From Cytophagales bacterium (GTDB taxonomy: Bacteria > Bacteroidota > Bacteroidia > Cytophagales > Microscillaceae), in NCBI GenBank assembly GCA_013298075.1, contig JAAFJG010000030.1:1-50564 (forward strand): 50,564 bases of DNA, written 5' to 3'. Positions 15,071 through 17,659 of this stretch are shown here, piece by piece (the first letter of the stretch is position 1; every line of letters begins with the position of its first letter). Below the pieces are notes generated by a model that was not told where the DNA came from, did no database searches, and saw only the letters and a program-made list of their open reading frames with translations. Both the position numbers and the translations under genes were made by a program.

Positions 15071-17659
15071 ATGAGTGAAATAGTAGAAACAACTGCTGAA
15101 ACAAAAGTAGAAAACACAAAAGATTATTCCGCAGAAAGCATACGCGCTCTCGAAGGTTTAGAAGCTGTAAGATTAAGACCTTCGATGTATATTGGCAATA
15201 TAGATTCGAGAGGTTTGCATCATTTGATTTGGGAAGTTGTTGATAATTCGATAGATGAAGCATTAGGCGGACATTGTAATTTGATAAATGTTGAGGTAAA
15301 TACAAATGGCTCAGTGACCGTTACAGACAACGGACGTGGAATTCCAACAGGTATGAATAGCCAAATGGGTAAATCTGCCTTAGAAGTCGTGATGACCGTT
15401 TTGCACGCAGGAGGTAAATTTGATAAAGATTCTTATAAAGTTTCGGGAGGTTTGCACGGCGTAGGAGTTTCTTGCGTAAATGCTTTGTCTATCAAATTGG
15501 TGGCGACTGTGTATCGTGAAGGCAAAATTTTTCAACAAGAATATAGCAAAGGCGTGCCACAAGGCGATGTAAAAGTGATTGGAACGTCTGAAAAAACAGG
15601 GACAACCGTTAATTTTTTACCCGATGCTGAAATTTTTACTTATACAACTGAATATAATTTGAATACAATTATAGGACGTTTGAGAGAACTTTCTTATCTT
15701 AATAAAGGCATTACGTTGACTTTGACAGACCATCGTGTGATGGGTGATGATGGAAAACCTGTCTATCAAGAATTTCATTCGCAAGGTGGTTTGGTTGAAT
15801 TTGTTAATTATTTAGATGAAACAAGAAAACCAATTTTACCATTTCCTATTTATGTAGAAAATACAAAAGGAGATGTTCCGTTAGAAATTGCGTTGATTTA
15901 TAATGAGTCTTATACCGAAAACGTATTTTCTTATGTCAATAATATCAATACGCATGGTGGTGGAACTCACGTGGCTGGTTTTAGGTCTGCTTTGACTCGA
16001 ACTTTGAAAAGTTATGCGGATAAATCAGGTATGTTAGAAAAAAATAAAATCGAGGTCAGTGGAGAAGATTTTAGAGAAGGATTAACGGCTGTTATTTCTG
16101 TAAAAGTCGCAGAACCTCAATTTGAAGGACAAACCAAAGATAAATTAGGCAATAATGAAGTGCGAGGAATTGTAGATAGTGCGATTGGTGAAGTACTCGG
16201 AAAATATTTAGAGGAAAATCCAAAAGAGGCAAAAATGATTGTCAATAAAGTTATTTTAGCCGCACAAGCACGTATCGCAGCCCGAAAAGCACGCGAAATG
16301 GTACAAAGAAAAACCATTATGGGCGGTGGTGGTTTGCCGGGTAAATTGGCGGATTGTGCTGATAATGACCCGCATAAATGCGAATTGTACCTTGTGGAAG
16401 GGGATTCGGCAGGTGGCTGTTTTGATGGAAATACAAAAGTATCTTTGGCTGATGGACGAGAATTAAGTTTTTTTGAACTGATTGCAGAAGAAAATAAAGG
16501 TATTCAAAATTTTTGTTATACGATTTTAGAAGATGGTTCAGTAGGAATTGAGAAAATTTTAAATGTCCGTAGAACAAAACAAAATGCACAAGTAATTAAA
16601 ATAACATTGGATAACAATGAAGAAATTATTTGTACGCCTGACCATAAATTTATGTTGCGTGACGGTAGTTATTGCGAAGCACAAAATTTAAAAAATAATT
16701 TTTCTTTGATGCCTTTGTATAGAAAATTATCCAAAATTGAAAATAGGATTACTATAAAAGATTATGAAATGTTATTAAATCCTAAAACTAATAAATGGAT
16801 ATTTACTCATACTTTGTCTGATAAATATAATTTAGAAAATGATGACAATAACAATAATAGACCTCACAAAGATTTTGATATACGCATTAAAAATGGAAGT
16901 AAAGCCCATTACAATCACAAAATAATTTCTATTGAATATTTAGATTCGCCTATTGATGTGTATGACCTTGAAGTACCAAATACGCATAATTTTGCTTTAT
17001 CTTCTGGTATTTTTGTTCATAATTCAGCCAAACAAGGCAGAAATCGTAGTTTTCAAGCGATTTTACCTTTGCGTGGTAAAATTTTGAATGTAGAAAAAGC
17101 ACAAGAATATAGAATTTATGATAACGAAGAGATAAAAAATATGATAACTGCTTTGGGAGTTACTTTTGGAAAAGAGGACGACAACCGAGCATTAAATATG
17201 ACTAAATTACGTTATCATAAAGTTGTAATTATGACCGATGCAGACGTTGACGGCTCTCATATTCGTACTTTAATTTTGACTTTCTTTTTTAGATATATGC
17301 GTGAATTGATTGAAAATGGCTATGTTTATATTGCTCAACCACCTTTATATTTAGTCAAAAAAGGAAAAGAAGAAAAATATTGTTGGACTGAACAAGACAG
17401 AGCAGAAGCAACAAGATTATTAGCAAAAGATGGAAAAGTAGAATCCGTACACGTGCAACGTTACAAAGGTTTGGGAGAAATGAACCCCGAACAATTATGG
17501 GAAACCACTATGGATCCTGAAAGACGTACATTAAAACAAATCAATATCGAATCAGCAGCCGATGCAGACCGATTATTTTCTATGTTGATGGGCGATGAAG
17601 TGCCACCTCGCAGAGATTTTATCGAAAAAAATGCAAAATATGCCAGAGTAGATATTTAA
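15071..17659 (+). CDS. gyrB: DNA gyrase subunit B, interrupted in-frame by a mini-intein
   Basis: GyrB GHKL ATPase and Toprim blocks are present ([26 protein letters not shown] ... [43 protein letters not shown]). The 862-aa length reflects a 202-aa insertion between GG and SAKQGR. Confidence 0.95.
16418..17023 (+). other. Mini-intein (202 aa) within gyrB: Cys1 ... His-Asn, followed by Ser(+1)
   Basis: The insertion begins '[13 protein letters not shown]' (block A), has 'TPDHKF' (block B), and ends '[22 protein letters not shown]|S' (blocks F/G). The flanking extein sequence, 'LVEGDSAGG' before and 'SAKQGRN' after, is contiguous in intein-free GyrB. Confidence 0.85.

Follow-up and report, generated by a model that had tools for sequence, protein, structure and literature searches.

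The gyrB gene of the Cytophagales bacterium contig JAAFJG010000030.1 raises the question of what an insert of 202 codons is doing inside the coding sequence of an essential protein, from which kind of element it derives and which of that element's functions it has kept. Within the stretch of DNA analysed here (1..50564, in the following referred to as the window), this insert is very probably a class-1 allele of the Ssp GyrB-type gyrB intein, located directly after EGDSAGG in the Toprim domain, from which the HNH endonuclease has been deleted while splicing has been kept. The gyrB open reading frame (ORF) gave a full-length match to the NCBIfam model TIGR01059 (gyrB) at 3e-282, carries the Pfam domains HATPase_c, DNA_gyraseB, Toprim and DNA_gyraseB_C and is identical in sequence to the database protein P0106. 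Its segment 16418..17023 translates into exactly 202 codons with zero stops and is flanked by LVEGDSAGG upstream and SAKQGRNR downstream; when these 606 nucleotides (nt) are taken out, GDSAGG-SAKQGRNR becomes contiguous again (hyphens mark splice junctions here and below). The strand opposite the insert is full of stops, and an antisense ORF at 16317..16589 (90 amino acids, aa) was rejected as spurious, as it lies on the opposite strand of a strongly conserved coding region. The features of the gene are the following, whereby conservation was counted by aligning the window intein with 71 genome-derived gyrB inteins from the same insertion site:

15071..17659, + strand: gyrB precursor ORF, 862 codons plus stop, comprising N-extein, intein and C-extein (from the ORF list)
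15071..16417, + strand: N-extein, 449 aa; its C-terminal end is the Toprim acidic motif (LVEGDSAGG)
16418..17023, + strand: intein, 202 aa, codons 450-651; class 1, from Cys1 to His201-Asn202, then Ser+1
16418..16456, + strand: block A with the Cys1 nucleophile; Cys1 kept in 71/71 gyrB inteins
16634..16651, + strand: block B, TPDHKF (intein aa 73-78); Thr73 and His76, each kept in 71/71
16733..16843, + strand: HNH endonuclease vestige, intein aa 106-142 (37 aa), equivalent to the start of the HNH domain in full-length relatives
16844..16906, + strand: Asn-rich 21-aa linker in place of ~253 aa of endonuclease
16907..17023, + strand: C-terminal splicing lobe, intein aa 164-202, with the TIGR01443 match and Asp183, His190, His201 and Asn202
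16955..17023, + strand: blocks F and G, inside the C-terminal splicing lobe
17024..17659, + strand: C-extein, 211 aa plus stop; begins with Ser+1 and holds the remaining Toprim and the GyrB C-terminal domain

An earlier note on this DNA had proposed where the insert begins and ends, which blocks it contains, which gene hosts it and at which site it lies, and all of this turned out to be exact when judged by the ORF list, the translation, the Pfam and NCBIfam matches and the conserved columns. The description of the site as Toprim-proximal needs amendment: the GG-SAKQGR junction was right, while the location is inside the Toprim domain and not adjoining it, because the Pfam Toprim match picks up at profile position 13 right after the intein. 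As the note had stated, removal in silico restores the reading frame and the extein motif, and the empty site which it proposed to look for in related genomes was found in P0111 (658 aa, 83% identical), an intein-free GyrB orthologue with the identical junction, reading ...EGDSAGGSAKQGRN...

That the insert is an intein was supported by profile, sequence and structure comparisons. The comparison with intein hidden Markov models, likewise proposed earlier, gave matches above cutoff, well past anything expected by chance, for Pfam Intein_splicing (PF14890; E = 5e-21, 75.5 bits versus a cutoff of 35.8) and for both NCBIfam terminal models, namely TIGR01445 for the intein N-terminal region (9e-14, 52.3 bits versus 24.5) and TIGR01443 for the intein C-terminal region (1e-7, 31.9 bits versus 15.6); in addition, a match at 1.2e-38 was obtained for NCBIfam NF052663 (RtcB_rel_intein2). 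With just the intein as query, 105 homologues were found in a protein search (best E = 1e-60), all of which were ≤353 aa long, and full-length intein-bearing GyrB proteins (822-1094 aa) contained in the same database surfaced only when the spliced GyrB served as query; apparently, short fragments were at an advantage when candidates were selected by words, such that match lists from short queries under-represent full-length hosts. When the PDB was searched by sequence, only inteins (DnaE, RadA, gp41-1) were found. When modelled by AlphaFold together with short stretches of extein on either side, the intein reached a mean predicted local distance difference test score (pLDDT) of 83.6 and a predicted template modelling score (pTM) of 0.81, with the sole internal low-confidence stretches (pLDDT <50) located within intein aa 146-161, i.e., in the linker. 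With this model as query, the top of the Foldseek list against the PDB was made up entirely of mini-inteins (Ssp DnaB, Npu DnaE, Npu DnaB and Mtu RecA), with a probability of 1.00, E down to 7.5e-10 and a target-normalised TM-score of up to 0.83, and the window intein is hence predicted to possess the HINT fold.

The residues on which splicing depends were found to be complete, since the window intein has Cys1, the TxxH of block B, the block F Asp and His, the block G His-Asn pair and Ser+1, and it is because of Cys1, Ser+1, the block B TxxH and the C-terminal HN that the element was assigned to class 1. Besides Cys1, Thr73 and His76, also Asp183, His201 and Asn202 occupy columns that are kept in 71/71 gyrB inteins, and the His190 column is kept in 68/71. 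Class-1 inteins splice by an established four-step pathway. In the window, the precursor would be made as one chain of 862 aa, the split Toprim domain of which would be inactive until splicing has occurred. Initially, an N-S acyl shift would take place at Gly(-1)-Cys1, a step expected to be aided by Thr73 and His76 of block B, and the N-extein would then be moved onto the Ser+1 side chain. Next, Asn202 would cyclise with the aid of His201 and of Asp183 and His190 from block F, and a final O-N shift would yield GDSAGG-SAKQGR and thus a GyrB of 660 aa. Judged from the intact catalytic residues, the purifying selection described below and an efficiently splicing engineered homologue, the window intein very probably splices.

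This engineered homologue derives from the GyrB intein of the cyanobacterium Synechocystis sp. PCC 6803 (Ssp GyrB). The natural Ssp GyrB intein is full-length (~435 aa) with an HNH-type endonuclease (InBase), and in the work of Dalgaard et al. 1997 it was reportedly the first intein to be recognised as having one. Among the database matches, the GyrB fragments P0002, P0003, P0008 and P0015 show the same junctions as the window intein (...GDSAGG-CFSGDT...VFVHN-SAKQ), and P0005 shows the N-terminal junction GG-CFSGDT, with its first 150 residues after GG ending ...HNFALAS. The metaclust entry P0005 is an engineered construct and no natural sequence, in which the 150-aa GyrB N-intein is joined by a Gly/Ser-His6 linker to a second intein ending ...VFDLTVPGPHNFVANDIIAHN. 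Based on the length of 150 aa, the engineered linkers and the sequence, we take P0005 to be Ssp GyrB S11. The S11 split intein derived from Ssp GyrB pairs a 150-aa N-intein with the 6-aa C-intein GVFVHN, then Ser (PMC2794532). When P0005 plus GVFVHN (156 aa) was compared with the window intein, 98/156 aligned positions were identical (BLASTP E = 3e-65), and because of this identity and of the GIFVHN-SA end the window intein was assigned as an allele of the Ssp GyrB-type intein.

Both elements share the host protein, the insertion point (GG-C...HN-SA) and the Cys1/Ser+1 class-1 chemistry, and their C-terminal hexapeptides read GIFVHN in the window and GVFVHN in Ssp GyrB (PMC2794532). The natural deletion in the window moreover covers roughly the region which engineers cut in order to obtain the mini-intein (PMC3620165). 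Differences concern the host, which is a Cytophagales bacterium instead of a cyanobacterium, and the size, as the window intein comprises 202 aa and keeps the 37-aa vestige and a novel 21-aa linker, whereas the engineered form of 156 aa is without both. In E. coli, efficient splicing ('+++') has been reported for the Ssp GyrB mini-intein that was engineered to be free of the endonuclease, which renders splicing by a natural endonuclease-deleted relative plausible (PMC3620165).

How the window intein came to be short is best seen from L001, the best genome match, which is the metagenome-assembled genome (MAG) Cytophagia bacterium PH2015_04U_30_13 (RDZP01000095.1; protein P0107). Its GyrB of 1094 aa is encoded at 2654..5938, includes an intein of 434 aa, and the same OmpA-family gene is found downstream of gyrB as in the window. 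Between window and L001, aa identity amounts to 93.8% in the N-extein, 95.7% in the C-extein, 83% in intein aa 1-141 and 78% in intein aa 166-202. Collinearity of the inteins is limited to window intein aa 1-142 and 164-202 at the protein level and to window intein nt 1-426 and 491-606 at the DNA level; for the 64 nt in between (16844..16907) the DNA alignment gave no credible counterpart in the L001 intein, only scattered matches of 3-10 nt. These 64 nt, which may be a frameshifted remnant or filler, take the place of ~253 L001 codons. Of the intact HHxDFNKLNNNPxN...H...H motif and the ~230 aa of helical repeats that L001 retains, the window intein is without ~253 residues. The same architecture recurs in 13 full-length relatives, in which an invariant ITIxGYEM...W.FTH...N...Y...HHxDFxKxNNxPxN...H...H is followed by three helical 'AKKQW'-type repeats. 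Pfam HNH_3 matched at the same place in 11/13 of these, in each case below the gathering threshold (best E = 2.2e-4), and several database relatives have a precomputed HNH_3 match on record.

For the part of the endonuclease still present in the window, collinearity with L001 extends to both protein (33/37 aa identical) and DNA (85% identity), and this part aligns to the invariant ITIxGYEM...W.FTH..N columns of the 13 full-length inteins, whereby the invariant Gly is replaced by Asp in the window. AlphaFold modelled this vestige as a beta-hairpin plus helix, with a mean pLDDT of 77-92 in 10-residue blocks. Within the subsequent linker, MAFFT paired PHKDFD with HHVDFN, the first His being Pro in the window, and PHKDFD may therefore be what remains of the HHxDFN motif. 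The middle segment of the window intein gave no Pfam match, and the intact HNH motif (HH...N...N...H) and the DNA-binding region are absent, with ~253 aa missing. Functionally the window intein counts as a mini-intein, as no endonuclease core is left, yet with the 37-aa vestige and the 21-aa linker the intein measures 202 aa versus 156-170 aa in the cleanest relatives. A LAGLIDADG remnant was considered and rejected, because the sequence is devoid of that motif and its relatives have HNH. The earlier suggestion that the element is without a full homing endonuclease was thus confirmed by the catalytic core and repeats missing relative to L001, and the suspicion of a decayed endonuclease in the middle segment was borne out in that an N-terminal HNH-type vestige is present in the window while L001 retains the intact domain. 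From these comparisons we infer that the endonuclease of the window intein is dead and that the direction of change was endonuclease loss, not gain. The ancestor would accordingly have been a bifunctional intein of ~434 aa with an HNH homing endonuclease, from which, in this lineage, ~253 residues (the HH...N...N...H core and the following helical repeats) would have been deleted, with a 21-aa linker put in and a 37-aa vestige left. Deletion of the endonuclease core would render the element unable to home. Its vertical persistence would be owed to its position in an essential gene, and therefore only splicing would be under selection.

The age of the intein in this gene was estimated from synonymous divergence (dS) and from omega, the ratio of non-synonymous to synonymous divergence, between window and L001. 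For the exteins dS was 0.71-0.73 and omega 0.05-0.06 (0.06 in the N-extein, 0.05 in the C-extein), for intein aa 1-142 the values were 0.71 and 0.137, and for intein aa 164-202 they were 1.63 and 0.098. The statement of equal dS rests on aa 1-142, because aa 164-202 make up only 39 codons in which synonymous sites are near saturation (proportion of synonymous differences, pS, 0.66). Equal dS in exteins and intein suggests that the intein was already present in the common ancestor, and an omega of 0.10-0.15 for the intein, with 0.11 for the vestige, shows purifying selection, which fits an intein preserved for its splicing function. A relative-rate test with P0119 as outgroup counted 8 versus 7 changes and hence no acceleration on the window branch. 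An apparent acceleration with P0110 as outgroup (18 versus 2 changes) was rejected as an artefact, as L001 and P0110 have almost the same intein sequence. The GC content of the intein (26.4%; 15.8% at third codon positions, GC3) is within the range of the other genes in the window, the overall GC of which is 30.5%, and the richness of the intein in Asn, Lys and Ile is explained by the AT bias of the host acting on weakly constrained sequence. Recent foreign acquisition of the intein was rejected, its dS being that of the exteins and its GC and GC3 lying in the host range.

Relatives of the host protein were surveyed using the GyrB spliced in silico as query, and the best 120 protein clusters were considered. 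An intein is present in 10/120 of these clusters and most show an empty site; the closest GyrB matches include named Microscillaceae, Eisenibacter and Microscilla, by which the window is assigned to Cytophagales. Among the close relatives, inteins of 434 aa are found in L001/P0107 and P0119, and shortened inteins with different deletion edges in P0121 (352 aa), P0127 (253 aa), P0116 (188 aa) and P0108/P0110 (162 aa). L001 and P0108 have exteins that are ~100% identical, although their inteins measure 434 and 162 aa, respectively, and P0108 shows an unrelated segment of ~40 aa in place of everything between 'SLMP' and block F. P0110 and L001 are 96% identical in the first 100 intein residues and only 92% in the exteins, in contrast to window and L001 with 94% in the exteins and 80% in the intein. 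Recent intein exchange, i.e., active homing within this Cytophagia clade, is suggested for L001, P0108 and P0110. Another relative, P0133 (a GyrB of 807 aa), has the empty site GDSAGGTAKQGR and owes its extra length to a tandem duplication of ~150 residues in the ATPase region, which is probably an assembly artefact. Invasion, decaying endonucleases and empty sites side by side make up the textbook homing cycle described by Goddard and Burt (review PMC7765530). Natural mini-inteins that arose by endonuclease loss show the same pattern, with full-length, degraded and empty alleles mixed and selection acting on splicing only (PMC7765530). There is no difference in kind between these and the window intein, the ancestral state of which is unusually well preserved in a sister lineage.

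Several points weigh against the reading of the window intein as an endonuclease-deleted, splicing-competent allele. When a profile built from the endonuclease regions of the 13 full-length relatives was run against the sequences in the PDB, it returned no HNH structure and as a lone chance match arfaptin (E = 0.2); the conserved motif and the sub-threshold Pfam matches are therefore the basis for assigning the ancestral domain to HNH. The 37-aa vestige and the 21-aa linker are unusual when compared with the engineered mini-intein and could slow folding or splicing. Furthermore, the DNA analysed amounts to 50 kb of the genome, such that a second, intein-free gyrB may be located elsewhere, and the contig, with its deletion junction, stems from a metagenome-derived assembly. 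A second gyrB would make room for a splicing-defective intein, in which case the gyrB copy described here would have lost its function or be turning into a pseudogene while the other copy supplied gyrase, and the deletion did leave a linker near block F that is non-native and of low complexity. This is nevertheless very unlikely given a frame that is intact across 862 codons, the full retention of catalytic residues and the strong purifying selection since the split from L001, which is seen in exteins (omega 0.05-0.06) and intein (0.10-0.15) alike. The 202-aa form could also have been created by the assembly, if full-length and other intein alleles of a mixed population were collapsed or joined, and that mixed populations exist follows from L001 and P0108, whose near-identical hosts differ in their inteins. 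Such an artefact is highly improbable, however, since the frame is kept across the junction, the window intein differs from that of L001 throughout, on both sides of the linker, and the linker itself matches neither the L001 nor the P0108 allele.

What the remaining piece of endonuclease does was considered in two further ways. The vestige, perhaps together with the linker, might have been kept because it is needed for folding of the splicing domain or because it makes gyrase maturation conditional, e.g., by residual DNA binding. Its high identity to L001, its low omega, its fairly confident model and the lack of an excess of window-specific changes (2-3 versus 1) are what would be expected, P0001, P0004 and P0127 retain the same piece after independent deletions, and at least one intein is documented that loses splicing once its endonuclease domain is removed (review PMC7765530). 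However, the piece is absent from the natural relatives P0003, P0008, P0015, P0108 and P0110 and from loci with inteins of 158-183 aa, the engineered Ssp GyrB mini-intein splices without it, and the invariant Gly has become Asp in the window. The vestige omega moreover averages both lineages, including that of L001, which still needs the segment for its endonuclease, and the change counts are too small to serve as a test. A retained role of this kind was therefore judged unlikely, and the stronger version, in which the 37-aa HNH piece would have been co-opted as a folding aid or as a small module that binds nucleic acids and couples the maturation of GyrB to a cellular signal, and the element would so be a natural conditional intein within an essential topoisomerase, is quite unlikely and not favoured by the evidence. 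That the intein still encodes a very small active endonuclease and remains mobile could be read from the resemblance of PHKDFD to the HHxDFN start of the HNH motif. Here, Pro stands in place of the first His, the motif lacks its Asn, Asn and His positions, the downstream helical region of ~253 aa is absent as well, and the segment, without a Pfam match, is modelled as disordered, so that residual mobility is extremely improbable.

For the distribution of the family, 185,579 species, each represented by a single genome, were scanned with the family alignment as query, and the best 80 loci were analysed. At least 485 loci in these species-representative genomes encode relatives of the window intein, and the best 80 of these at least 485 loci belong to CPR (Candidate Phyla Radiation)/Patescibacteria, Omnitrophota, DPANN archaea, Methanoperedens archaea, Gammaproteobacteria, Planctomycetes, Acidobacteriota, Cyanobacteria and three Cytophagia/Cytophagales MAGs. 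The boundaries seen in the window, on which the earlier note had staked its case, are shared by related GyrB inteins, as 71/80 of the best loci resolve as gyrB with the same junction xVEGxSAGG-C...HN-S(A/S)K. Among these 71 gyrB loci, the intein is 420-438 aa long in 43, 158-258 aa in 24 and 304-385 aa in 4. The same intein family is also found in GyrA (P0017 and P0021; GQGNFG-C) and RtcB (P0048; VGVDIG-C), and 137 viral contigs carry relatives in topoisomerase-like proteins, at RtcB-type junctions (VGVDIx-C) and in other proteins. The inteins in GyrA, RtcB and phages belong to the same sequence family, including the HNH domain, but their host proteins and junctions differ, so that they are ectopic relatives and not the gyrB allele. 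Further junctions such as ...DHPPNG-C and ...KAFLGY...-C occur in other proteins of the viral loci (L081-L160), and three viral topoisomerase genes have the family intein at a gyrB-type site; P0030 is a further protein with the family intein at another site.

Essentially, the window intein is a real but ordinary member of a widespread and already exploited gyrB intein family, and there is little new biology in the finding. The earlier view that GyrB inteins are known mainly from cyanobacteria and are uncommon in Bacteroidota overstated their rarity, given at least 485 loci in many phyla and the presence in 10/120 of the closest GyrB clusters. The 33 GyrB inteins of bacteria listed in a survey from 2016 came from Actinobacteria, Chloroflexi, Cyanobacteria and Proteobacteria, and none from Bacteroidetes (PMC4760082), to which a Cytophagales (Bacteroidota) host is now added; literature searches on GyrB inteins with HNH and on inteins in Bacteroidota with gyrase returned nothing useful. 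The Bacteroidota host is a modest addition to the literature and none to the databases. Of value is that one clade offers a natural homing-cycle series, which ranges from the intact HNH intein over truncated forms of 352, 253, 202, 188 and 162 aa to the empty site, and which is usable for studying how endonuclease domains decay and which linkers the splicing domain tolerates. As a tool, the window intein, which has a low GC content and is presumably mesophilic, is related to the Ssp GyrB mini-intein and nothing categorically new, although it may splice well with native-like GG/SA junctions. The potential as a split or conditional intein which had been attributed to it was overstated, since the Ssp GyrB mini-intein and its split forms (S1, S11) already exist as engineered tools (PMC2794532, PMC3620165).

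As to the surroundings of gyrB, the window holds zero tRNA genes and zero Rfam families at the gathering threshold. Directly upstream of gyrB, four consecutive ORFs (10355..14839, + strand; 329, 276, 598 and 282 aa) gave no Pfam match at 1e-5, and the last of these (282 aa) has a signal-like N-terminus and looks secreted. At 19183..22149 (+ strand) a fusion protein of 988 aa is encoded, in which a glycoside hydrolase family 3 domain (5e-83) is combined with a beta-lactamase/transpeptidase-like domain (2.7e-43). Finally, ~5 kb downstream of gyrB, the 822-aa ORF at 22969..25440 (- strand) encodes a bacterial protein resembling the major vault protein (MVP), with matches to the Pfam Major Vault Protein shoulder PF11978 (6.6e-31) and the vault repeat PF17795 (5.6e-8).

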